DNA of 64,000 nt, from NCBI GenBank assembly GCA_964649535.1, contig CAZYTF010000001.1:1521-65520 (forward strand), given 5' to 3'. Both the position numbers and the translations under genes were made by a program. Position 1 is the stretch's first letter, and every line of letters begins with the position of its first letter. The notes under the pieces are model-generated. The model was not told where the DNA came from. It saw only the letters and a list, made by a program, of their open reading frames with translations, and did no database searches. This stretch comes from an uncultured Candidatus Saccharibacteria bacterium. GTDB lineage: Bacteria > Patescibacteriota > Minisyncoccia > Phycocordibacterales > UBA918. Positions 54,920-64,000 of the stretch are shown here, one piece after another.

Positions 54920-55363
54920 TTAAGATAATTTCTTTTGATGACAGGTGGTACATTTACAACCCCCAGGACCAATAATGTCTCTCATGTAGTCTTTCCCGTA
55001 ATTGTAAGTAAACTCCTCCCCAGCTTTAATATTTTTGCAAGCCCGAATATAAATTCGGTCGTCATCTTCATCATGCTCGGCTTCGCAATTTGGCTTGCAT
55101 GCATGATTTATATAGCGTGCTGTGTTTTTTCTGTTTTTGCCATCAATTACGAGCGTGTCAGTAACTTCGAAAAGATATCTCCCCCCTCGTCGGTTTGCTT
55201 CATCTTCACTAATTCTGTCCCCTGTATACTCAATAATGAGTTGTTCTTTTTGTATAGCTTCCCCGGCAAAAAGACCCAAGCCAGCACTCGATCGTTTTAC
55301 GCTAACCTTCGGTCGGTATAAATCGTCAAACATAATGCGGTTGAGTATAGCAAACAAAAACAT
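54920..55363 (-). CDS. SET-domain protein (putative lysine methyltransferase) with a post-SET Cys cluster
   Basis: GLGLFAGEAIQKEQLIIEYTG, RYINHACKPNC and EEFTYNYG are the SET signatures. C-terminus CKCTTC. Confidence 0.75.
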   Translation of the reverse strand: MFLFAILNRIMFDDLYRPKVSVKRSSAGLGLFAGEAIQKEQLIIEYTGDRISEDEANRRGGRYLFEVTDTLVIDGKNRKNTARYINHACKPNCEAEHDEDDDRIYIRACKNIKAGEEFTYNYGKDYMRDIIGPGGCKCTTCHQKKLS

Positions 55364-55374
55364 CTCTCACAGGG

Positions 55375-55402
55375 TTGACTGTAAAATTGTGTATTGTACA
55401 CT
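55375..55402 (+). promoter_or_regulatory. Sigma70-like promoter for the NrtR-like gene (near-leaderless)
   Basis: TTGACT, a 16-nt spacer, then TACACT, with the ATG 8 nt downstream. Confidence 0.35.
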
Positions 55403-55409
55403 AAGATAC

Positions 55410-56081
55410 ATGCATAAAGCCCCAGAAGAATTCAGATTTGCTGCAATAGCGGTAGATATTGTTGTTTTTGGTATTAAAGATAATACGCTTTGTTTGTTGC
55501 TTGACGAAGTCAACAGACCTCCTCATTATCAAAATATAGACGCTTTTATTGGTGGTCTTATTGGTGTTGATGAAACTGCAGACGATGCAGTTGTTCGTCA
55601 TTTGCGCGACAAGGCTGGTATTAAAAATGTGTATACAGAACAGCTCTATACATTTAGTAACATTAACCGTGACAAACGGAACCGAGTTATTTCAGTGAGC
55701 TATATGGCAATTGTCCGGCCAGATGTTGTTGAGCGTTATGTGCACTCGAGTGCTCACTGGACTCCTGTAGCTCCTTTATTAAAACTTGCGTATGACCATG
55801 ATGAAATGCTGAAAGTCGGCTTAGCTCGTTTGCAAGGTAAGTTGGGGTACACAACAATCGTGCAGTATCTTTTGCCTACAGAGTTTACGCTTACAGAAAT
55901 GCAACAAGTATACGAGCTTGTTACTAAAAAAGAATTTGATAAACGGAACTTCAGAAAGAAAGTGCTGGCACTAGACATTATTAAAGAGACAGGGAATGTG
56001 CAAGAGGGAGTTAAAAATAGACCTGCAGCACTCTATGTTTTCAGAAATAAAAACGTTCAAGAACTTCAATTATTTGTATAA
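55410..56081 (+). CDS. Nudix-related transcriptional regulator (NrtR-like: Nudix domain plus C-terminal winged helix)
   Basis: N-terminal Nudix fold with a degenerate box (IGGLIGVDETADDAVVRHLRDKAGI). The C-terminal roughly 90 aa resemble the NrtR wHTH. NAD-salvage genes lie nearby. Confidence 0.6.
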   Translation: MHKAPEEFRFAAIAVDIVVFGIKDNTLCLLLDEVNRPPHYQNIDAFIGGLIGVDETADDAVVRHLRDKAGIKNVYTEQLYTFSNINRDKRNRVISVSYMAIVRPDVVERYVHSSAHWTPVAPLLKLAYDHDEMLKVGLARLQGKLGYTTIVQYLLPTEFTLTEMQQVYELVTKKEFDKRNFRKKVLALDIIKETGNVQEGVKNRPAALYVFRNKNVQELQLFV

Positions 56082-56083
56082 AA

Positions 56084-56120
56084 AGAGTGCCGTCACCCAT
56101 TTATGGGTAACGGCACTTTT
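56084..56120. terminator. Bidirectional terminator
   Basis: agtgccgtcaccca-ttta-tgggtaacggcact. Confidence 0.55.
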
Positions 56121-56123
56121 GTT

Positions 56124-57113
56124 TCATGCTGCTTTAGAAGCTTTTCTAAGTACATATTTGTCAAGTACCTTTCGAGCATCAAATACAAATTGATCGGGAG
56201 GTATTTTCTCCCAGTCAGCAGCGGATGCTGTACAAGGTTCAGTTTTTCCTGGCTCGCCACTGTTCATCGTTCCAAATACTCTGGAGCGATAGAGAAGGGA
56301 GACTTTGTCACCCCGAGGGTCACGTCCGTCATTGCAAAGTGTCGTGATGAACTCGGATTCGTGTATAGACAAGCCTGTCTCTTCAAGTTGTTCCCACATC
56401 ACTGTGTTTTGAGCTGACACATGAGGGTCGATATGTCCGCCAGTGAAGGCGAAGCCGGGAGGGTTGTTCAGTCGCTTGACCATAACAAATTCACCCGACT
56501 CTGTTTCTGCAATGTTGTCTACGCAGTATGAGACATCAGCGCGCAGTGTGTTGCCGATTGTTGACAGCACACTGTACACAGGATAGTTGCCGAGCTTTGC
56601 TCCTCGTCCATTCAGGAAGGGGAGTTCGATGACGGTCATAAACGCTGCGACAGTGCCACCGAGCTTTTCAATCAAACGACATCCGGCTTCTGCAGTGCCA
56701 CCGGTCGCCAGTAAGTCATCAATGAGGACGACAGCTTTTCCGGCAAGATCCATCTCATTGAGATAAAGCTCATCGAGACCGTACTCTTTTTGATACGTGA
56801 CGAACACAGTGGGTGGTGGCAACTTCCCCTTCTTCCGAAGCTGCAAGAAGCCAATACCGAGACGTTCTGCAACTGCAGCGCCGAAGATAAAGCCACGAGC
56901 GTCAAAACCTCCGATGTAATCAATCGTACGACCGTGTTTCTTTGACCAGCTTGCGCACCGTTCTGCGAAGAGATCGGTGACAAGTGTCAAAGCACCTGGA
57001 ACTCCCGTCAGGTCTTGTGAATTCCAATAGAGTATCCCTGGCTTTGGAAAGTCGGGAATTGGAGTAAACAAATGTGGCAAGTCTTGCACAGTGAGTTTTG
57101 TCATGTTCTTCAT
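56124..57113 (-). CDS. apt: Fusion: adenine phosphoribosyltransferase (N-terminal) plus Nudix hydrolase (C-terminal)
   Basis: APRT motifs DFPKPGILYWN, ARGFIFGAAVA, VVLIDDLLATGGT. The C-terminal roughly 150 aa carry a Nudix box-like GGHIDPHVSAQNTVMWEQLEETGL. Confidence 0.75.
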   Translation of the reverse strand: MKNMTKLTVQDLPHLFTPIPDFPKPGILYWNSQDLTGVPGALTLVTDLFAERCASWSKKHGRTIDYIGGFDARGFIFGAAVAERLGIGFLQLRKKGKLPPPTVFVTYQKEYGLDELYLNEMDLAGKAVVLIDDLLATGGTAEAGCRLIEKLGGTVAAFMTVIELPFLNGRGAKLGNYPVYSVLSTIGNTLRADVSYCVDNIAETESGEFVMVKRLNNPPGFAFTGGHIDPHVSAQNTVMWEQLEETGLSIHESEFITTLCNDGRDPRGDKVSLLYRSRVFGTMNSGEPGKTEPCTASAADWEKIPPDQFVFDARKVLDKYVLRKASKAA

Positions 57114-57209
57114 CCTTTCAATGAACCATTCCGTAGCTACTGTACCTTAAGTTTTTAAAAGATAAAGCAATAGAGTACAAATCGTAACAAAAAAGATACA
57201 CTACATGAA

Positions 57210-57240
57210 ATAAAAAAAGCGGCACTGTATGTGCCGCTAC
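57210..57240 (-). terminator. Intrinsic terminator downstream of prs
   Basis: agcggcac-tgtat-gtgccgct followed by a U-run on the minus strand. Confidence 0.55.
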
Positions 57241-57271
57241 AGGCCTTCTTCTGTAAGCGTTTGAGTCTTTA

Positions 57272-58354
57272 TCAGTCAGTTGCTGCCCACTCGTCTTTAA
57301 CTCCTCCGATGCTCCCATCAACAGTGATTAGTTTTAGAACCAACTCTGCCATGAATTTTGCATAGGTGACTCGCACAATGAGTGGGTTATCCTTGTAGTA
57401 TTTTTTTTCACGCGGCAAGGTGTCCAGCGTAAAGATTTTAAATTTTGCTGCTGCTATCTTTGCTTCAGCAGAAGTCAATTTCCCCTTTTTGTCACCATCA
57501 ACGCGTTTCGGACTCATGACATTGTGTGCAACAGCACCGTAGCCTTTCTTTGCTCCCATTTTTAAGGCAAGCATGAGTGAATCTAGTAACGTTCCCATCG
57601 TACCGCCAATATCATCGTAGCCAATCATCGTGTGACTTGTATCACCTACAATTTTGATTGCCTTGCTTCCGCTTTTGTCACGACGCTTGTCAACAATGGC
57701 GATATCGAGACCGGGGTCTGTTTTTTCTGCACAATCACGTCCACGCTTTGACCCTCCAACATCCGTAGCGAGTATGCGCAAAATTCCTTCCTGAATCTCT
57801 TTTGCGAAATACTTCCTGAAAAATGGAGCAAAAATGACATGTGCAGGAATATTAAGTACTTCAATTGTGTCATAGAAGCCCGCAATTTGTGGTGCGTGCA
57901 AGTCAAAGGTGACGAGGTATTTTATGATCCCAAACCCTTCGAGTTTGCGTGCCAAGTCTTTTGCAGTAAGTGGCTGACGGTACATCGGGCGTTCTTGGCG
58001 TGAGTAGGGGAGATAGGGCGCGACGAGAAAAACCCTACCAACCCCCGATGCTTTCAGTGCCCCAAGAGCTATCTCAAGTTCTTGAATGCGGACGTTGATG
58101 TCGCCAGTAAAGTTCCTCGGAGTAAAGTCCCAAAAAAGAATTATTAGCTTGTTGCGAACATTTGGTTTGATGGTTGTGCAGAGTTCCCCGTCACTAAAGA
58201 CGTCAATGTCAATAACGCAGTCACGCGTGTATTCAATCGGGACACCTCTGTGTTGGAGCTGCCGAGCAATTTTTTTTGTGACAGGGTCCATGTTTCTGGA
58301 CGTCATTATCACAATGCCGTCTTTGCACCAGGAAAGTAGTTGGGGGATAGCCAT
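57272..58354 (-). CDS. prs: Ribose-phosphate pyrophosphokinase (PRPP synthetase) with a C-terminal extension
   Basis: VIMTSRNMDPVTKKIA, DGE, a PRPP-binding loop DKRR..SG, and DDIGGTMGT. Start at ATG 58354 with a GGAG ribosome-binding site. Confidence 0.85.
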   Translation of the reverse strand: MAIPQLLSWCKDGIVIMTSRNMDPVTKKIARQLQHRGVPIEYTRDCVIDIDVFSDGELCTTIKPNVRNKLIILFWDFTPRNFTGDINVRIQELEIALGALKASGVGRVFLVAPYLPYSRQERPMYRQPLTAKDLARKLEGFGIIKYLVTFDLHAPQIAGFYDTIEVLNIPAHVIFAPFFRKYFAKEIQEGILRILATDVGGSKRGRDCAEKTDPGLDIAIVDKRRDKSGSKAIKIVGDTSHTMIGYDDIGGTMGTLLDSLMLALKMGAKKGYGAVAHNVMSPKRVDGDKKGKLTSAEAKIAAAKFKIFTLDTLPREKKYYKDNPLIVRVTYAKFMAELVLKLITVDGSIGGVKDEWAATD

Positions 58355-58459
58355 ATCATTCTCCTTTTCAATGAACTCGTTTCTCCAATACTCTACACAA
58401 CCATGCCTAAAAGTACAGGAGTGATTGATAATTTGTAACAAAAAGAATACACTTGAATA

Positions 58460-59194
58460 ATGCAATTAAAAGACATATTTAAACGACTTGGGTACCCTAA
58501 ACATTCCGACACAATCTACGAGGTCCTTACACAAAGCAAGGAGACACTTTCGGTGTCTGCACTTGCAGAACAGTGTGGTGTTTCTCGAGTCGTTGTATAT
58601 CGCTGTGTTGAAAAACTTGAAGAGGATGATTTGATAGTGAGAGACATAGTCGGCCGCCGAACGTACTATAAAACTTCAAGTCCTCATAAACTTACGGAGG
58701 CAATGCGGTGTGTAGAAGATGAGTCAGCACAAGTGGTGAAACAACATATACAAACACGCGAAAAAGATGTGCCACACAATGTGCGATTCCTTCATGGTGC
58801 TCGTGGCATTCGCGAAGCATTTGATGATGTCATTACGCATACTAGGAAAGGGGATACATTCTTCCGATATACGTCTGAGCGAGATCTTGAAAAGGTTAAT
58901 GCCTACCTATCGAAGGAATATCGACTACAACGTGACCAGAAGAAGTTAGAGCGACTGGTAATCAGTAATCCAGTTTCTGGTACACAAAAGAAATCGAGAC
59001 TTGAACGTTTTATTAAATATATTCCTACCGACGCAGATCAGTTTGAGCACAATATTGTTGAACTAATTTACGGCAGTCGCGTCTGTATCATTGACCTCAA
59101 CCTTGAAGAAGTGATGATTATTGATAATCAGCAACTAGCAGACTTTCAAAAGGTGATATTCAAACTACTCTACAAACGCCTCTCAAACGAGTAG
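58460..59194 (+). CDS. TrmB-family transcriptional regulator
   Basis: N-terminal HTH (LSVSALAEQCGVSRVVVYRCVEKLEEDDLI) plus a TrmB-like C-terminal domain. Confidence 0.55.
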   Translation: MQLKDIFKRLGYPKHSDTIYEVLTQSKETLSVSALAEQCGVSRVVVYRCVEKLEEDDLIVRDIVGRRTYYKTSSPHKLTEAMRCVEDESAQVVKQHIQTREKDVPHNVRFLHGARGIREAFDDVITHTRKGDTFFRYTSERDLEKVNAYLSKEYRLQRDQKKLERLVISNPVSGTQKKSRLERFIKYIPTDADQFEHNIVELIYGSRVCIIDLNLEEVMIIDNQQLADFQKVIFKLLYKRLSNE

Positions 59195-59264
59195 ATATTG
59201 ACAGAAAACAAAATAATGGTATTTTACAAACAAAGAGTTTTTTGAAATTAGAAGGGAAAACACC

Positions 59265-60653
59265 ATGGAAAACGTTGTTACGCTGCCAGTATTAAAAGGG
59301 CAAGGGTTTATCCTGCGCCATTTTGAATCAAACGACGCTGCTTCGCTGCAGCATCACCTCAACGATGAACGAGTGGCTCGCAAAGTGAGTCATATACCGT
59401 TTCCGTATACCATCGACCATGCACGAGATTGGATTTCTCGTACTGAAAGTTCAGTGTGCCTTAATTCCAATCGTATCGATTTTGTAATCGACATTGGCGG
59501 CGAAGCCGTGGGCTCAGTTGCCTTCATCAATATCGAAGGACATAAAGCTCAGTTGAGTTACTGGCTTAGTCCTGACTACTGGGGCAAGGGTATTGTCTCT
59601 GAGGCAGTGAAATTACTGCTCAGCTTTGGCTTTGTGATGCTGCCGCTTGAACGTGCCTATGGGTACGTATATAGCGAAAATACTGCTTCCGCCCGTGTGC
59701 TCCAAAAGTGTGGCTTTCGTTTTGAAGGTACACATAATCGAGAGTGGCGTAAGGTGATTGACGAAGAAGTGAAATTCTTCGATTCAAACTTTTATGCCGT
59801 ACTCCGGTCTGACGTGTTTCGGGAAGTTCGTGATGTGGTTGTATTCAAGTCTGACACTGAGGAGTCCGATCTCGCAAGTAAGGGGTTGGCACGTCAGCTC
59901 AGTGAGGTTGGTGTTAAGGTTCAGATAGCACATCGTGCCGATGAACTCACCGCTCCATTCAGTCTTGCCATTTCTGTGGGTGGTGATGGACAAATGATGA
60001 GAACTGTCCACACCATGTCGCCACTTTCTGTGCCAACTCTGGGCCTTAACGCCGGTAATGTTGGGTTTTTGACGAGTGCGAGAGTTAATCCCCTTGGGGT
60101 GAACCAGTCAGTGTTTCAGCGGATAGTTCAGGGAAACTTTCAGGTCGAACAGCGTCTGGGCATTCAATTTGAATTTGAAGGGCAGTCCTATGGCCCATTT
60201 TCTAATGAGGTTTTACTCAAAGTACCCAAGGGTATGGCGAGTTATGTCCTTAGCGTAAACCAAGAACAAGTATATGCGGACATGGCAGCTGACGGTATTC
60301 TTTTGGCAACAGCAACTGGTTCAACTGGATATAACACCGCTGCTGGAGGACCGATTATTTGGCCTGATTCTCGCAGTGTGGTTGCAACCGCTCTGAATCC
60401 GACAACGTTCAATGTGCGTCCGATTGTGTTTGGTCAACTTGCACAAGGAGGGGAAATATCACTTGGCGTAGCGAAACTGCACCATGATATTGAACCAGTT
60501 GTGTCCGCAGATGGAAAAGATCAGCTTGAAGGAAAAGGGTTGCGCTCGGGCGATGGGGTGGTGATACGTAGGTACCCTCGTCCAATGCTCTTTGCAACGT
60601 TTGGAAGTAGTTCATACCTCCATGCATTAAAAGAAAAAAAGGGATTTATGTAA
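59265..60653 (+). CDS. nadK: Fusion: GNAT (RimL-like) N-acetyltransferase plus NAD kinase
   Basis: GNAT motif A (GYWLSPDYWGKGIVSEA) at the N-terminus. NAD kinase motifs GGDGQMM, NAGNVGFL and ATATGSTGYNTAAGGPI at the C-terminus. Confidence 0.75.
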   Translation: MENVVTLPVLKGQGFILRHFESNDAASLQHHLNDERVARKVSHIPFPYTIDHARDWISRTESSVCLNSNRIDFVIDIGGEAVGSVAFINIEGHKAQLSYWLSPDYWGKGIVSEAVKLLLSFGFVMLPLERAYGYVYSENTASARVLQKCGFRFEGTHNREWRKVIDEEVKFFDSNFYAVLRSDVFREVRDVVVFKSDTEESDLASKGLARQLSEVGVKVQIAHRADELTAPFSLAISVGGDGQMMRTVHTMSPLSVPTLGLNAGNVGFLTSARVNPLGVNQSVFQRIVQGNFQVEQRLGIQFEFEGQSYGPFSNEVLLKVPKGMASYVLSVNQEQVYADMAADGILLATATGSTGYNTAAGGPIIWPDSRSVVATALNPTTFNVRPIVFGQLAQGGEISLGVAKLHHDIEPVVSADGKDQLEGKGLRSGDGVVIRRYPRPMLFATFGSSSYLHALKEKKGFM

Positions 60654-60665
60654 ACTTAAGAAGAT

Positions 60666-60693
60666 GGGCGGCGAGTAACACACGCCGCCCTTT
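60666..60693 (+). terminator. Intrinsic terminator
   Basis: gggcggcg-(10 nt)-cgccgccc followed by TTTT. Confidence 0.5.
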
Positions 60694-60877
60694 TATATAC
60701 ACCATACATAGTGTCGGCTTGAAATTAAGAATTAATAGTATAAGATAGTGTCAGATATACACAAAGTAACGTATGGTAGTTCATTGAAACCTGAGCGGGA
60801 ACATAGACAAAACGCCATTTTAATGGTACTTTTCGACGAAATTGTACATCGCTCTTATAGAAAAACAGGAGAAAGAC

Positions 60878-61501
60878 ATGGCTAAAGTTAACAACTCATT
60901 GAACCACCAAATGTTCAAGCTTGCAGCTCCCGGCGCAGGTGCGATGGTCTTCCAGGAGTTGGATTCGAATACGTTTCGCGTTCTCCTCGCTATGAGGACA
61001 GCGCTTGTCGGACTGGGGCTTGGTATTACAGGCGGTGGGTTCATCGAATGTGGCGCTATCGACGCTCTGCAAGTGGACACCATCATTCAGACAGCTGATG
61101 AGGCCTATCGTGAGTTGTGTCAAGAGAATCTCGGCTTTGAAAATGTTGTTGATATTGATACATTCCTGCTTCACGCGCAGCCTATTGCACTCGTACATGC
61201 TCGTACAAATGACGTTAACCGCGTCCATTCTGTCAACATGTATGGCTTTCGTGCAAACGATAGCCAGTGGAACAGGATTGCTGCGCTTGAACCGGGTCTC
61301 GACAAAGAACGTACCGGACCGCTGCTTGAACACATTGTGCGATGGAAAGGGAAAATCGACCGTCGCGAGCCAGAGCGGTTTGTAACGATTGAGGATGCGC
61401 GTGGCAGATTCCTTGAACGCCATGACTTTCACCACAAGCATGAAATGCACACTGTTGCCTCAATTGCGTGGCATGCTCAAAATGGACGGCTGTTGCCCTA
61501 G
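60878..61501 (+). CDS. Hypothetical protein inside the NAD-salvage cluster
   Basis: GGAG ribosome-binding site 6 nt upstream of ATG 60878. 207 aa with no family recognised. A long antisense ORF is rejected. Confidence 0.45.
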   Translation: MAKVNNSLNHQMFKLAAPGAGAMVFQELDSNTFRVLLAMRTALVGLGLGITGGGFIECGAIDALQVDTIIQTADEAYRELCQENLGFENVVDIDTFLLHAQPIALVHARTNDVNRVHSVNMYGFRANDSQWNRIAALEPGLDKERTGPLLEHIVRWKGKIDRREPERFVTIEDARGRFLERHDFHHKHEMHTVASIAWHAQNGRLLP

Positions 61502-61510
61502 GAGTAAACC

Positions 61511-62170
61511 ATGTTGAAAAAAAGAGTAGGGATTCTCGGAACCTCCGCGAATCCCTTGCATGAGGGTCATGTCGCCCTCGCGCTTGAAGCACTTGCTGTT
61601 GCGCAGCTTGATGAAGTCCTTTTTATGGTCAACCAAAATCCATTTAAGGAGGTCAACGGCTTTGCACCAGTTGCGCATCGTTTGCACCTTGCTCATCTTG
61701 GGGTGCGCGCAAGTGGTCATCTCGGTAATGGTTTGAAAGTAAGTGAGTTCGAAGTGGTACTTCGTCAACTGGGCACTGAGAATGCAACAGCAGTAATGCT
61801 CGCACATTTTTCAAAGGCATATCCTGAACTCCAGCCAGTCTGGATGATGGGCACTGATAACTTTGTGTCTCTGCATACGTGGGGCGGTTGGCGCGACATC
61901 ATGGAGAAATACCCCGTTGTTGTGTTTGGACGCGATCAGAGCAGAGACGTTGCTCAGTATTCGATTGCTGCTACACAGTATCAGACACATGAGCGTGACG
62001 TCGTAAATTTTGATTGCGAACCTGGCACCTGGTGTTTTGTCGATGGAGTTTCTCACCTCGCATCGTCGACCTTGATTCGGGAGGCGTTGCTTCGGAAGGA
62101 GAAGCCCGAGTTCATTTGTGATGAGGCTGTTGCGTATATTCGAAAGTATCAACTATTCGGATGTGTGTGA
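61511..62170 (+). CDS. nadD: Nicotinate-nucleotide adenylyltransferase (NadD-like cytidylyltransferase fold)
   Basis: GILGTSANPLHEGH, a (H/T)xGH motif variant. About 220 aa. Confidence 0.7.
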   Translation: MLKKRVGILGTSANPLHEGHVALALEALAVAQLDEVLFMVNQNPFKEVNGFAPVAHRLHLAHLGVRASGHLGNGLKVSEFEVVLRQLGTENATAVMLAHFSKAYPELQPVWMMGTDNFVSLHTWGGWRDIMEKYPVVVFGRDQSRDVAQYSIAATQYQTHERDVVNFDCEPGTWCFVDGVSHLASSTLIREALLRKEKPEFICDEAVAYIRKYQLFGCV

Positions 62171-62176
62171 TGAGAT

Positions 62177-62267
62177 TCAGAAATTCTCATACCTGTCCGA
62201 CGACGCGAACCTCGCGCCGTCGGACACTATTGAGAGTTCCAGAGTTGGAATTCGTGGACGTTCTTTA
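62177..62267 (+). repeat. Copy 1 of a 91-nt structured element (GC-rich hairpin core gtccgacgacgcgaacctcgcgccgtcggac)
   Basis: Identical at 90 of 91 positions to 63139..63229. Starts right after the nadD stop and ends about 25 nt before the pncA-like start. Confidence 0.5.
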
Positions 62268-62292
62268 CAAGAGAAAAAAGGAGTAAGTCAAA

Positions 62293-63123
62293 ATGATACG
62301 TCGTCTTGCATTTATTATAGACCCACAAAATATGTTCATGACGTTGCCAGGAATGCCGTTGCCGGTGTTTGGTGCTGACCAGGACATGCTGCGTGTTGCA
62401 GTACGTCTGTTGCTCTATCCATTCTATTATGACGAAATCGTGGTTACGCTCGATACACACACTGAAGATCATATCGGGCACCCCGGACGGTGGTTGAATG
62501 ACCAGGGTCAGCAACCTCTGCCATTTACCGTTATTACTTCGGCTGAATACGAGGCAGGGAAGTGGTGTGCGGCCGATCCAGCGGACCAGGTATGGCAAGG
62601 TGACTACCTGCGACTGCTTGAAGCAACTGGTCGTGTGCATACTGTCTGGCCAGTGCATGGTCGGAAAGGTCATTTCGAACATAAGGTGTACAAGCCTCTG
62701 AAAGCCGCACTCGATACGTGGGAGCGCATTACTGGCAAGAAGGTGCGGTACATCGAAAAAGGTATGCATCGTGACACTGAGCAGTTTGGCGTGTTTGGTG
62801 CAAATGTCCCAATCACTGGAGCATCTGAGACAGAAATCAACATGGAACTGCTTGGCGAAGTAAACAGCTTCGATGCAACCCACTACTTTGGTGAAGCTTC
62901 CAGTCATTGTGCAAAGGACTCTGTTACACAGAACCTTGCGCATATACCTGAAGTTGATTTCTCCAAGTACACAGTCTTCCGTGACTGTATGTCGCCTGTT
63001 GCTGCAGTGGTTGATGAAAAAACTGGTGACGTGATTGTTGACTTTCCTGCACAAGCTGAAGCATGGTTTCATGAGCTGCAGGCAAAAGGAGTCAATGTCG
63101 TTAAGGCCGAAGATTACTTTTGA
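62293..63123 (+). CDS. pncA: Isochorismatase-family nicotinamidase-like protein
   Basis: LAFIIDPQNMF (compare IVDVQNDF), TLDTHTEDH, VWPVH, and catalytic-Cys context GEASSHCAKDSV (compare ATDHCV). Confidence 0.6.
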   Translation: MIRRLAFIIDPQNMFMTLPGMPLPVFGADQDMLRVAVRLLLYPFYYDEIVVTLDTHTEDHIGHPGRWLNDQGQQPLPFTVITSAEYEAGKWCAADPADQVWQGDYLRLLEATGRVHTVWPVHGRKGHFEHKVYKPLKAALDTWERITGKKVRYIEKGMHRDTEQFGVFGANVPITGASETEINMELLGEVNSFDATHYFGEASSHCAKDSVTQNLAHIPEVDFSKYTVFRDCMSPVAAVVDEKTGDVIVDFPAQAEAWFHELQAKGVNVVKAEDYF

Positions 63124-63138
63124 CACCTGAGCAATTTC

Positions 63139-63229
63139 TCAGAAATTCTCATGCCTGTCCGACGACGCGAACCTCGCGCCGTCGGACACTATTGAGAGTT
63201 CCAGAGTTGGAATTCGTGGACGTTCTTTA
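63139..63229 (+). repeat. Copy 2 of the 91-nt structured element
   Basis: Same sequence as copy 1. Starts 15 nt after the pncA-like stop and ends about 32 nt before the pncB start. Confidence 0.5.
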
Positions 63230-63261
63230 ACAATTGAATAGAGAGAAACAGGAGTGAAACG

Positions 63262-64000
63262 ATGATTAAGAATCTGCTCTGGAATCCTGACGTGCCGATT
63301 GTCCGCCGTGCGGATGAAAACGACGTATACAAGATTCTGATGATGTATCTCATTTGGAAGTACTATCCGAATCTTCGTGTGAAGTTTGGTTTCAAAAATC
63401 GCACAAAGACAGTTGTATTGTCAGAGTATGTTGATCTGCTTGAACTGCAGGAACAGCTTCGCGAAACTGCAAAACTTCAGTTCACTGAAGAGATTATCGC
63501 AGTGTATCGTACCTGGGATATGTTCCCTGAAGATTTTCTTCAGGCACTTGCAGACATCAAGCTTTCTGCACCAACGGTGTACAAGGAAGATGGACAGCTG
63601 AAGATTGATATCGAAGGTCTTTGGTTTGAAGTGACCCTCTGGGAGATTTATATTCTATGTACGGTTTCTGAGTTGTATGGTCGAGCACGTGCGCGTGCCG
63701 AAAGTATAACTGAGGCAGCACTGTGGAAACAGGGCAATATCCTGCTGAGTGAAAAGATTAAGCTTTTCAAGGCAAATCCTGATTTGCGTATTGCGCAGTT
63801 TGGTCTGCGCCGTCGCTTCAGTGTGCTTTGGGAAGACCACATTACTGAGCGTCTATTGACCGAATGTCCTGGTGTCATCACTGGGGTATCCAACATGTAT
63901 ATTGCGGACAAGTTCGGAATGCCTGCACAGGGTACCAATGCTCACGAATTGCCTATGGCTCTTACGGCGCTTGCGCGTCATGAAGGTCCAGAAGCAATGC
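63262..64000 (+). CDS. pncB: Nicotinate phosphoribosyltransferase (N-terminal part; runs off the window)
   Basis: DVYKILMMY... and GTNAHE near the window end. Open reading frame to position 64000. Confidence 0.8.
   Translation, partial: MIKNLLWNPDVPIVRRADENDVYKILMMYLIWKYYPNLRVKFGFKNRTKTVVLSEYVDLLELQEQLRETAKLQFTEEIIAVYRTWDMFPEDFLQALADIKLSAPTVYKEDGQLKIDIEGLWFEVTLWEIYILCTVSELYGRARARAESITEAALWKQGNILLSEKIKLFKANPDLRIAQFGLRRRFSVLWEDHITERLLTECPGVITGVSNMYIADKFGMPAQGTNAHELPMALTALARHEGPEAM

Follow-up and report, generated by a model that had tools for sequence, protein, structure and literature searches.

Towards its end, the window (the whole stretch of DNA analysed; 64,000 nucleotides) carries a cluster of genes related to NAD salvage: nrtR, an adenine phosphoribosyltransferase (APRT)-Nudix fusion, prs, an HTH regulator, a GNAT-NadK fusion, nadD, pncB and nadE, the last of which comes after pncB on the parent contig (Table 1). 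The GNAT-NadK gene is an uninterrupted open reading frame with an ATG start, and its product consists of a GNAT domain (aa ~1-181), a linker of ~8 residues and a NAD kinase (aa ~190-462). That both domains are complete and lie in one polypeptide, GNAT first and NadK second, as proposed in the preliminary description, was borne out by the reading frame, Pfam and motifs. The promoter-like site upstream of this gene had the top sigma-70-like score within 55000-63500 (10/12 consensus matches; putative), and the terminator-like hairpin downstream had an RNA fold of -18.6 kcal/mol (z = -4.57 vs shuffles).

Table 1. Positions in the window of the fused gene, its parts and its neighbours
Feature	Position	Strand	Description and basis
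nrtR (Nudix-related, ADP-ribose-responsive repressor family)	55410..56081	+	Pfam NUDIX + WHD_NrtR
Adenine phosphoribosyltransferase-Nudix fusion	56124..57113	-	Pfam Pribosyltran + NUDIX; NF002636, 158 bits > 125-bit cut-off
Ribose-phosphate diphosphokinase (Prs)	57272..58291	-	Pfam Pribosyltran_N; TIGR01251, 128.8 bits > 113-bit cut-off
TrmB/ArsR-like winged-helix regulator	58460..59194	+	Pfam HTH_11 + TrmB; immediately upstream of fused gene
Promoter-like site, TTGACA-16 nt-TATTTT with TG extension	59198..59225	+	Directly 5' of fused gene; consensus match
Shine-Dalgarno-like GAAGGG	59251..59256	+	Purine-rich, ATG 8 nt further on; sequence reading
GNAT-NadK fusion gene	59265..60653	+	462 aa + stop; ORF, Pfam domains
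GNAT domain, RimJ/RimL/YdaF/MccE class	59265..59807	+	aa 1-181
Predicted acetyl-CoA pyrophosphate-binding loop	59580..59606	+	aa 106-114, WGKGIVSEA; between beta4 and alpha3
N139-x-x-S142 segment	59679..59690	+	MAFFT alignment with S. typhimurium RimL
Inter-domain linker	59808..59831	+	About aa 182-189
C-terminal NAD kinase	59832..60650	+	aa 190-462 (273 residues); Pfam PF01513 + PF20143
GGDG motif	59979..59990	+	aa 239-242; G239, G240, D241, G242 invariant in alignment A1
NAGNVGFL motif	60048..60071	+	aa 262-269; N262, G264, V266, G267, F268, L269 invariant
TGSTGY, glycine-rich NAD-binding loop	60315..60332	+	aa 351-356; T351, G352, S353, T354, Y356 invariant
Terminator-like hairpin GGGCGGCG...CGCCGCCC then UUUUAUAU	60666..60698	+	Stop codon 13 nt before
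Palindrome TAGTGT-N7-ACACAA (putative NrtR operator)	60746..60764	.	Overlaps -10 of promoter-like site 60719-60746
Conserved 196-aa protein	60911..61501	+	First gene past putative operator
NadD-type nicotinate-nucleotide adenylyltransferase	61511..62170	+	Pfam CTP_transf_like; NF000843, E 2.7e-39
Conserved 276-aa protein	62293..63123	+	Between nadD and pncB
pncB (nicotinate phosphoribosyltransferase)	63262..64000	+	Cut at window end; tblastn with L001 PncB

The nrtR gene product matched NCBIfam NF050029 (E 4e-33, under the model's cut-off), and nrtR is directly upstream of the fused gene, on the same strand, in three related clusters (L084, L085 and L087). Homologues of the winged-helix regulator recur in the NAD clusters L086, L088, L093 and L096. 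The 196-aa protein had no Pfam or NCBIfam match, and the 276-aa protein had no Pfam, NCBIfam or PDB sequence match. Orthologues of the former are in the same place in L005, L084 and L086, and those of the latter were found in L005, L085, L088, L089, L091 and L093. Our impression is that the 196-aa protein may be a degenerate Nudix protein and the 276-aa protein an isochorismatase-like nicotinamidase; a BLASTP comparison of the former with L085's NMNAT-Nudix-like protein gave no match.

The motif TAGTGT-N7-ACACAA had a single match within the window, at the promoter-like site that precedes the downstream salvage genes, and an operator-like copy (TAGTGT-N7-ACACxA) was found at 55385-55403, upstream of nrtR. 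The motif is at the equivalent position in L005, L084-L089, L091-L093, L096 and L100. As a palindrome that overlaps a -10 box, it is read here as a putative NrtR operator. The fused gene's own promoter region (59195-59264) contained no operator-like palindrome, the copies in the window being those at 55385 and 60746. A riboswitch was also considered for this motif, and rejected: no Rfam match was obtained at E <= 1 in 55000-63500.

The two halves of the fused protein

All Pfam matches of the fused protein exceeded the gathering cut-offs. In the N-terminal half, Acetyltransf_3 (PF13302) matched aa 16-152 over profile positions 3-138 of 138: E 3.7e-28 and 99.4 bits, against a cut-off of 25.4. 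The nearest structures were YdaF, RimJ and RimL, and the fold was closest to the RimJ/RimL/YdaF/MccE class. The term "RimL-like", used previously, was therefore appropriate for the fold class, but not for orthology, because the scores were far under the NCBIfam equivalog cut-offs for RimL (NF007539; 25.3 bits vs 184) and SpeG (NF011709; 44.1 bits vs 218); judged by these scores, the GNAT domain should not carry either of these names.

The acetyl-CoA pyrophosphate-binding loop of GNAT enzymes, after beta4, has the form Q/R-x-x-G-x-G/A. The predicted loop of the fused protein, which in the model lies after strand 94-101 and before or at the start of helix 110-125, is W-G-K-G-I-V in the window and W-R-R-G-L-A in the orthologue consensus (WRRGLAxxA over the loop in the family), and the latter fits x-x-G-x-A with Trp, not Gln/Arg, at the first position. 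The GNAT motif reported in the preliminary description had one wrong letter: the sequence reads SYWLSPDYWGKGIVSEA, not GYWLSPDYWGKGIVSEA. G109 did not vary in A2 and A3, the alignments of GNAT alone, and among the 19 fused orthologues it was kept in 17 (P0007 has N and P0014 has K), and A114 was invariant in A2 and nearly so in A1 (the 19 fused orthologues). In a MAFFT alignment, S142 corresponded to Ser141 of RimL, the proposed general acid of that enzyme (PMC4964394); this position was Ser or Thr in every fused orthologue, and N139 was invariant among them. E160 was nearly invariant in the NAD-linked clade and one residue off the register of RimL E160 (MAFFT), leaving the placement of the general base ambiguous. 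The GNAT domain was conserved more than NadK in 93% of the orthologue pairs (mean identity 62% vs 53%). The GNAT half is predicted to be an active acetyl-CoA-dependent N-acetyltransferase.

In the C-terminal half, Pfam NAD_kinase matched aa 226-274 (40.1 bits; cut-off of 25.5) and NAD_kinase_C matched aa 320-422 (50.3 bits; cut-off of 23.7). A phmmer search of the PDB gave E 1.7e-21 to 7mh7, and Foldseek retrieved 1u0r, 7qvs, 7mh7, 2an1 and 4hao (NadK of M. tuberculosis, P. aeruginosa, Salmonella and Yersinia) with E ~1e-21 and target-normalised TM scores of 0.77-0.80. The first motif is GGDGQ in the window copy and GGDGT in most orthologues, an NE motif is at aa 314-315, and TGSTGY adjoins the sole low-confidence stretch (aa 354-360) of the AlphaFold2 model. 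The best NCBIfam model, NF002306, scored 117.5 bits, below the NadK equivalog cut-off of 316, because of CPR divergence; this lowers confidence in exact functional equivalence, not in membership of the family.

The AlphaFold2 model of the full protein had a mean pLDDT of 85.4 and a pTM of 0.73, in which strand 168-180 is directly followed by strand 190-195. In 19/19 orthologues, 9-13 residues separated the invariant Y177 from the first strand of NadK. An internal start giving free NadK was also considered, as an in-frame GTG (V191) in the window is preceded by GGGAA at a distance of 9 nt, and was rejected because no Shine-Dalgarno sequence with a start codon is conserved in the linker DNA of L084-L087.

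Family motifs and predicted folds were kept in both halves, with purifying selection on both, in support of the previously suggested bifunctional enzyme. GNAT-NadK appears to be a real bifunctional protein of a tiny, symbiotic bacterium of the Paceibacterota (CPR/Patescibacteria), the catalytic competence of both halves being predicted from sequence.

Relationship to known enzymes

The view that NadK is normally stand-alone was broadly right: nearly all other NadK matches listed had no domains besides those of NAD kinase, at lengths of 260-300 aa. The fused protein shares the two-domain fold (target-normalised TM of about 0.8), together with GGDG, NxGxxGFL, NE and TGSTxY, with stand-alone NadK/PpnK (1u0r and 7mh7), and in sister clusters plain NadK has the place taken here by the fused gene. 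It differs in the additional N-terminal GNAT of 181 aa, in the score below the NCBIfam equivalog cut-off and in GGDGQ. RimJ/RimL/YdaF/MccE GNATs are free-standing genes, whereas the GNAT described here is embedded in NAD salvage clusters. In AAC(6')-Ie/APH(2'')-Ia, a bifunctional aminoglycoside-modifying enzyme, the kinase fold is protein-kinase-like and a single antibiotic is the substrate of the two halves; on the other hand, the kinase of the present fusion is NadK, with no indication of a substrate common to its halves.

An exception to stand-alone NadK is MJ0917, a characterised archaeal NADP phosphatase/NAD kinase (PMC8553519). MJ0917/MMP1489 of methanogens (NF010678) likewise have an N-terminal enzyme domain on NadK, and the partner acts in NAD(P) homeostasis; however, it is an IMPase-fold NADP phosphatase, so that synthesis and breakdown of NADP are opposed, whereas the partner here is GNAT. 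Only the NadK part of the NF010678 model was matched by our protein (profile 347-533; 89.8 bits vs the cut-off of 493), which has GNAT in place of the IMPase-fold domain. In the literature searched, we found no description of characterised prokaryotic NadK fusions besides MJ0917/MMP1489, and no paper on a fusion of NAD kinase with a GNAT/acetyltransferase domain, or on CPR and NadK, that described the present fusion.

Occurrence and gene arrangements in related clusters

The 462-aa protein is encoded identically on five contigs, which derive from no fewer than three ENA samples, and a search for the same fusion in other genomes gave 18 further full-length homologues with 41-50% identity, for a total of ~20 orthologues. 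No in-frame stop or frameshift was present between the domains: the frame was identical on the five contigs and continuous in the ~20 diverged orthologues. At 90% identity, the fused orthologues formed 19 clusters, in which GGDG, NxGxVGFLT and TGSTxY were invariant and the GNAT core was conserved. All of them are metagenomic and, wherever a taxon was given, from CPR only. In an exhaustive HMMER search of 1.84 billion representative proteins, the GNAT-NadK fusion was found in only two representatives. As candidates for convergent fusions elsewhere, those proteins listed by this search with several matching stretches that we examined were rejected: their best stretch was in the GNAT part and, judged by lengths and stretch counts, their sizes (338-398 aa, or 523-1754 aa where 3-9 stretches matched) fit tandem GNAT repeats. 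P0289, whose best stretch was in the NadK part, could not accommodate both domains in its 398 aa.

A jumbo phage with a NAD-reconstitution pathway was considered as the source of the DNA because NAD genes were present, tRNAs were absent and the contig is 260 kb long. This was rejected: no DNA match to phage records was obtained, the fusion was absent from phage records, and the window contains genes for EF-G, an EF-Tu-like protein, RecJ, RNase J, IF3, L35 and L20, against a phage origin.

The GNAT lineage was found in the NAD cluster in four states: fused with NadK, as a separate and coupled gene upstream, alone in the NadK position, and after nadE. In the fused relatives (L084-L087), the order is nrtR, GNAT-nadK, either the 196-aa protein with nadD or a ~310-aa Nudix-domain protein (which may be NadM-Nudix-like), pncB and nadE. 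As separate genes, GNAT is followed by its stop codon, an 11-nt spacer with GGGAAA and the nadK ATG in L091/L092, and its stop codon overlaps the nadK start in L005. In L093, a lone GNAT with its own terminator hairpin occupies the NadK position; in L096 and L098-L100, GNAT (43-45% identity) is directly past nadE, and NadK is absent within 8 kb. The same clusters with plain NadK, and without GNAT, were found in L088-L090. GNAT homologues below about 43% identity had neither a NAD context nor any other conserved context. In neighbor-joining (NJ) trees with bootstraps, the deep nodes, on which the order of fusion, fission and loss depends, were unsupported.

Since GNAT is present in NAD clusters without an adjacent NadK, the link appears to be that of GNAT to the NAD cluster, NadK being only one partner. 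Because of the four gene arrangements, and because GNAT was conserved more than the kinase, GNAT is, on these comparative grounds, an accessory enzyme of the whole NAD cluster and not merely a regulatory appendage of NadK.

Possible roles of the acetyltransferase in NAD(P) homeostasis

The NadK half would catalyze the last step from nicotinate via NaMN (PncB), NaAD (NadD) and NAD (NadE) to NADP (NadK). We propose, with about even chances of being correct, that GNAT acetylates a target tied to NAD(P) homeostasis as an accessory of the NAD cluster, and is fused with NadK in a bifunctional protein here. An acetyl group would be moved to an amino group of this target, which is probably a protein and not a pathway intermediate, because we know of no Preiss-Handler intermediate with a suitable amine, and which would not be NadK alone. 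The short linker of fixed length would keep both activities 1:1 and co-located. That the acceptor is a protein is our inference, as is what the fusion serves for. NrtR and NadK are the most obvious candidate targets in the cluster, because acetylation of the NrtR repressor or a NAD kinase can set NAD(P) levels elsewhere: acetylation of K134 in M. smegmatis NrtR sets NAD(P) levels, non-enzymatically with acetyl-phosphate as the donor (PMC6800001), and acetylation of K76/K304 in human NADK2 affects NAD(P) homeostasis (PMC9873681). In neither system, by contrast, do the genes of the pathway include a dedicated acetyltransferase, separate or fused.

Among the alternatives, direct control of NadK, in which GNAT acetylates a NadK lysine (in cis or in an oligomer) or senses acetyl-CoA and NADP synthesis tracks acetyl-CoA status, is possible, although we consider it unlikely. 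The fusion is covalent and its linker is short and constant in length, so that GNAT and NadK may form an intimate interface, and a defined arrangement of the domains would agree with the pTM of the full-length model; F251, R296, G310-P311-F312 and G396, conserved only in GNAT-associated NadKs, could form such an interface. Both split versions are translationally coupled, which is typical of complex-forming proteins, and human NADK2 is a precedent in being switched off by acetylated K76 and K304 (PMC9873681). On the other hand, the GNAT lineage persists in NAD clusters with no adjacent NadK (L093, L096, L098-L100), and sister clusters (L088-L090) use NadK without GNAT. An acceptor lysine specific to GNAT-associated NadKs was sought by comparison with GNAT-less sister kinases and none was found, K406 and K458 being equally conserved in the latter. 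Furthermore, GNAT retains residues of the catalytic type and outdoes the kinase in conservation, unlike a degenerate sensor.

GNAT is a promiscuous domain, and fusion or operon membership is possible without a mechanistic link. The loss of a stop codon between neighbours may have joined a housekeeping RimJ/RimL-like N-terminal acetyltransferase, with a ribosomal or some other protein as its substrate, to NadK without functional coupling. The nearest structures (YdaF, RimJ and RimL), the JGI names of some stand-alone relatives ("ribosomal protein S5-alanine N-acetyltransferase" or "RimJ/RimL family") and the notoriety of GNAT domains for promiscuous fusions are in line with this incidental origin, which is nevertheless improbable: NAD genes accompany GNAT repeatedly, in four arrangements and in lineages at 43-60% identity, more distant GNAT paralogues lack a NAD context, the RimL equivalog score was 25 bits vs 184, and the fusion was retained as its halves diverged to 41-50% identity.

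MccE and RimL acetylate aminoacyl-adenylate antibiotics. The GNAT half might similarly N-acetylate an amine-bearing nucleotide or pyridine antimetabolite that might else be taken into the salvage pathway or poison it, in an organism living wholly by scavenging. The position aligned with RimL W41, equated with the adenine-stacking residue 453 of MccE via an index offset between chains, is Phe/Tyr in the fused clade, and the rest of the cluster consists of nucleotide-handling enzymes; however, this aromatic residue is not kept in the after-nadE clade (His, Asn and Ser), the pathway offers no nameable candidate substrate, and fold similarity is the sole footing of this protective role, to which we assign a low probability. 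The chance that a sequencing or assembly error joined two adjacent genes is practically negligible, since, although the relatives L091 and L005 do have a split GNAT/NadK pair, the open frame is the same in at least three independent assemblies and the diverged orthologues share it together with the linker length.

Control of bacterial NADP synthesis, as currently understood, is mainly by feedback inhibition by NAD(P)H, and the coupling of acetylation to NAD(P) has so far been observed only in indirect form, through acetyl-phosphate on NrtR and acetyl-lysines on human NADK2. The conserved fusion and its split and unfused counterparts raise the testable hypothesis that a dedicated enzyme couples acetylation to NAD(P) supply. 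In its furthest form, the NAD salvage/NADP module of a CPR clade would have gained an acetyltransferase of its own that depends on acetyl-CoA, with NAD(P) supply set enzymatically by acetyl-CoA status and with NadK, NrtR, another cluster protein or a nucleotide-like molecule (a new step in NAD metabolism) as the target. This is put forward tentatively and may well not hold; if true, NAD(P) homeostasis would for the first time be seen under the control of an acetyltransferase encoded within the pathway, most explicitly so in the fusion with NadK. The fused, split and unfused variants place a user of acetyl-CoA beside NAD synthesis, NADP synthesis and the ADP-ribose-sensing NrtR, and the anonymous "GNAT family N-acetyltransferase" genes of CPR thereby gain a likely functional context. 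The automatic names of the fused proteins were "GNAT" or "NAD kinase", both never together.

Domain structure of the GNAT-NadK protein

The fused gene was a single uninterrupted ORF (462 aa) in the ORF listing of the window, with an ATG start and GAAGGG 8 nt upstream of it. All Pfam matches were above the gathering cut-offs: Acetyltransf_3 at aa 16-152 (E-value of 3.7e-28; entire profile covered), NAD_kinase at aa 226-274, and NAD_kinase_C at aa 320-422, bearing out the preliminary description of one ORF with GNAT followed by NAD kinase. The kinase motifs named there were all located in the translation as GGDG (aa 239-242), NAGNVGFL (for NxGxxGFL; aa 262-269), and TGSTGY (aa 351-356), and the NE pair corresponded to aa 314-315. 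The GNAT motif was also present, with one letter misquoted (correct reading: SYWLSPDYWGKGIVSEA). A stop codon or frameshift between the domains, proposed as grounds for rejecting the fusion, was countered by the occurrence of the identical 462-aa protein in three or more ENA samples (five contigs), and a word-indexed search found the same fusion elsewhere: 18 further full-length fused proteins (41-50% identity), followed by stand-alone NadKs of 260-300 aa. The fusion is genuine, its earlier account is accurate save for that one letter, and an artefact is hardly credible.

In an alignment of 19 fused sequences, the NadK signature residues were invariant, as was a GNAT core consisting of R70, D72, G83-F87, A95, Q96, W100, N139, E154, W161, D173, and Y177. 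The mean pairwise identity among fused orthologues was 62% for the GNAT half and 53% for the kinase half, the former being higher in 93% of orthologue pairs, and 9-13 residues separated the last GNAT strand from the first NadK strand in every orthologue. The whole-chain AlphaFold2 model had a mean pLDDT of 85.4 and a pTM of 0.73, and its kinase part superposed on the NadK structures of M. tuberculosis, P. aeruginosa, Salmonella, and Yersinia (E-values of ~1e-21; target-normalised TM of 0.77-0.80). The kinase half did not reach the NadK equivalog cut-offs of NCBIfam, as can be expected given how far this CPR protein has diverged; by Pfam, motifs, and fold, it belongs to the NadK family and is a predicted kinase. 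The GNAT half belongs to the PF13302 RimJ/RimL/YdaF/MccE class; its NCBIfam scores against the RimL and SpeG equivalogs were well short of the cut-offs, and it is orthologous to neither. In the alignment with S. typhimurium RimL, S142 (Ser or Thr in all orthologues) matched the proposed general acid S141, and E160 was nearly invariant but one residue out of register with the RimL general base E160.

The first kinase motif reads GGDGQ in this copy and GGDGT in nearly all fused orthologues. GGDGT has been linked to the use of polyphosphate in addition to ATP (review, PMC8553519), and the phosphoryl-donor preference of the GGDGQ copy may, therefore, differ.

NAD salvage cluster around the fused gene

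The fused gene lies inside a complete cluster for nicotinate (Preiss-Handler) salvage and ADP-ribose recycling. Sequence features on both sides suggest that it is transcribed separately: upstream is the promoter-like site with the highest score in the region, and downstream is a strong terminator-like hairpin. The palindrome behind the hairpin overlaps the -10 element of the next promoter-like site (salvage genes), and a weaker copy is located just upstream of nrtR. All related clusters inspected had TAGTGT-N7-ACAC(T/A)A in the corresponding position (L005, L084-L089, L091-L093, L096, and L100), and no Rfam family matched the palindrome region. We infer that NrtR of this CPR lineage probably uses the palindrome as its operator.

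Features of the NAD cluster and of related loci. L-numbers denote loci or contigs of relatives (L084-L087, fused; L088-L090, plain NadK; L091/L092 and L005, split; L093/L094, GNAT only; L096, L098/L099, and L100, GNAT after nadE; L001, parent contig)
Feature	Position	Strand	Remarks
SET-domain protein (137 aa)	~54920-55333	-	L001 5656-6069
Palindrome, weaker copy	55385-55403
nrtR	55410-56081	+
APRT-Nudix fusion	56124-57113	-	APRT part above NCBIfam cut-off; Nudix domain C-terminal
prs	57272-58291	-
TrmB/ArsR-like winged-helix regulator	58460-59194	+	immediately upstream of the fused gene
Promoter-like site	59198-59225		TTGACA-16-TgTATTTT
GNAT-nadK	59265-60653	+
Kinase motif GGDGQ	59979-59993
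Terminator-like hairpin	60666-60690		-18.6 kcal/mol; z -4.6
Palindrome	60746-60764		TAGTGT-N7-ACACAA
196-aa protein	60911-61501	+	no match in Pfam or NCBIfam
nadD	61511-62170	+
276-aa protein	62293-63123	+	no match in Pfam, NCBIfam, or PDB sequence
pncB	63262 to window end	+	cut by window end
nadE	beyond window	+
Nudix-domain protein (302-321 aa)	L085 9550-10515; L087 9594-10502; L089 9041-9955; L091 7568-8476; L093 8807-9739
ADP-ribosylglycohydrolase (PF03747)	L084 14698-15684; L085 14935-15906; L086 14888-15901; L088 6764-7804; L091 9539-10474; L093 10675-11658; L005 10065-10958

APRT-Nudix, the second fusion protein of the cluster, was conserved beside prs in L088, L089, L096, and L100, and suggests the coupling of ADP-ribose hydrolysis with AMP/PRPP recycling. 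The TrmB/ArsR-like protein, with homologues in the NAD clusters of L086 (fragment), L088, L093, and L096 (two copies), may be a second regulator. By eye, the 196-aa protein resembles a degenerate Nudix box (GGGFIECG...AYRELCQENLG), and the 276-aa protein appears to have an isochorismatase-like N-terminus (FIIDPQNMF) where nicotinamidase would be expected. In several relatives, a single protein of 302-321 aa matching Pfam Nudix (and, in L089 alone, weakly cytidylyltransferase) replaced the 196-aa protein and NadD; this protein is possibly a bifunctional enzyme of the NadM-Nudix type. An ADP-ribosylglycohydrolase gene was a frequent member or neighbour of related NAD clusters, and was absent from the part of this cluster within the window. 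The SET-domain gene, between the IF3-L35-L20 operon and nrtR, also adjoined the cluster in L084 and L093; the conservation of a bacterial SET methyltransferase in this CPR neighbourhood is unusual.

Distribution and arrangements of the GNAT lineage

When 1.84 billion 50%-identity representatives were scanned exhaustively with HMMER, just two of them, P0167 and P0018, were fused; the lengths and stretch counts of other multi-stretch proteins fitted tandem GNAT repeats, not NadK fusions. Among 185,579 GTDB species representatives, this GNAT was paired with NadK at two loci, both in CPR MAGs: a fusion in Paceibacterota (L004) and a split gene pair in Parcubacteria (L005). The sole fused relative with a taxonomic name was from a 'Candidatus Paceibacterota bacterium' MAG (MEX0918011.1). 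The flanking order RNase J, L20, L35, IF3, and SET was common to the window and L084 (same contig as L004). The architecture is real, conserved, and confined to one small CPR clade. The host is a CPR/Patescibacteria bacterium (NCBI phylum Minisyncoccota), and the window and parent contig encode RecJ, EF-G-like and EF-Tu-like proteins, RNase J, IF3, L35, and L20. A large phage with NAD-rebuilding genes was ruled out: phage records gave no match at the nucleotide level, and in tblastn searches, phages had NadK or GNAT only as separate genes.

Four fused relatives (L084-L087) shared the order nrtR, GNAT-nadK, 196-aa protein and nadD (or the ~310-aa Nudix-domain protein), pncB, and nadE. L088-L090 had the same cluster with a plain NadK of 261-276 aa and without GNAT. 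A search with the GNAT half alone revealed stand-alone GNATs (54-59% identity). In L091/L092, within the same cluster, GNAT ended at TAG, and an 11-nt spacer that included GGGAAA separated it from the start (ATG) of nadK (279 aa); in L005, the GNAT stop overlapped the nadK start. In L093/L094, GNAT alone occupied the NadK position; behind it were a terminator hairpin and the putative operator palindrome, and nothing was left of a kinase. A metagenome scan added three sequence-distinct loci (L096, L098/L099, and L100) in which GNAT (43-45% identity) directly followed nadE in convergent orientation to prs, and NadK was absent within 8 kb. In neighbor-joining trees, this clade was apart from that containing all fused, split, and GNAT-only forms, with deep nodes unsupported. 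All homologues more distant than these (below ~43% identity) had neither nearby NAD genes nor any other shared context. These four arrangements indicate that the GNAT lineage is tied to the NAD cluster, the NadK fusion being one of them.

This fusion of two well-known domains, restricted to a small CPR clade, is new: no description was found in the literature searched, and automatic annotation gave the protein one of two names, 'NAD kinase' or 'GNAT family N-acetyltransferase'. Among prokaryotic NadK fusions, a description of a characterised protein was found for MJ0917 alone, the NADP phosphatase/NAD kinase of methanogens; the domain joined to its kinase is not a GNAT, and its logic is clear (PMC8553519). 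AAC(6')-Ie/APH(2'')-Ia also joins a GNAT to a kinase and is structurally close to the GNAT half, but the parallel is formal: its kinase is unrelated to NadK. The fusion is of less value in itself than as part of the fused, split, and unfused series, in which an acetyltransferase lineage belongs to the module of NAD salvage and NADP synthesis.

Possible role of the acetyltransferase

The C-terminal half is predicted to be the NAD kinase of the cell, and the N-terminal half a predicted active acetyl-CoA-dependent N-acetyltransferase that would serve the whole NAD module; the fusion would then secure equimolar and co-localised production of GNAT and NadK. We give about even chances to GNAT being an accessory enzyme of the cluster as a whole. 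Direct control of NadK by its GNAT half is possible, but doubtful. In its favour are the short linker of fixed length, the translational coupling of the split forms, and the conservation of F251, R296, G310-F312, and G396 in GNAT-associated NadKs only; against it, GNAT-only clusters and NadK clusters without GNAT both exist, and no lysine is conserved solely in GNAT-associated kinases. Since the fusion blocks the kinase N-terminus, any acetylation of the fused NadK would have to be on a lysine. Given the four arrangements, it is unlikely that a housekeeping Rim-type enzyme was fused to NadK incidentally. A protein is a likelier acceptor than the Preiss-Handler and ADP-ribose intermediates, since these lack an ordinary amine. 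An MccE-like small-molecule role of GNAT is quite improbable. In M. smegmatis NrtR, the acetylation of K134, with acetyl-phosphate as the donor, is needed for the repression of NAD synthesis (PMC6800001), and acetylated K76 and K304 occlude the active site of human NADK2 (PMC9873681). Based on these precedents, NadK and NrtR are the first candidate acetylation targets.
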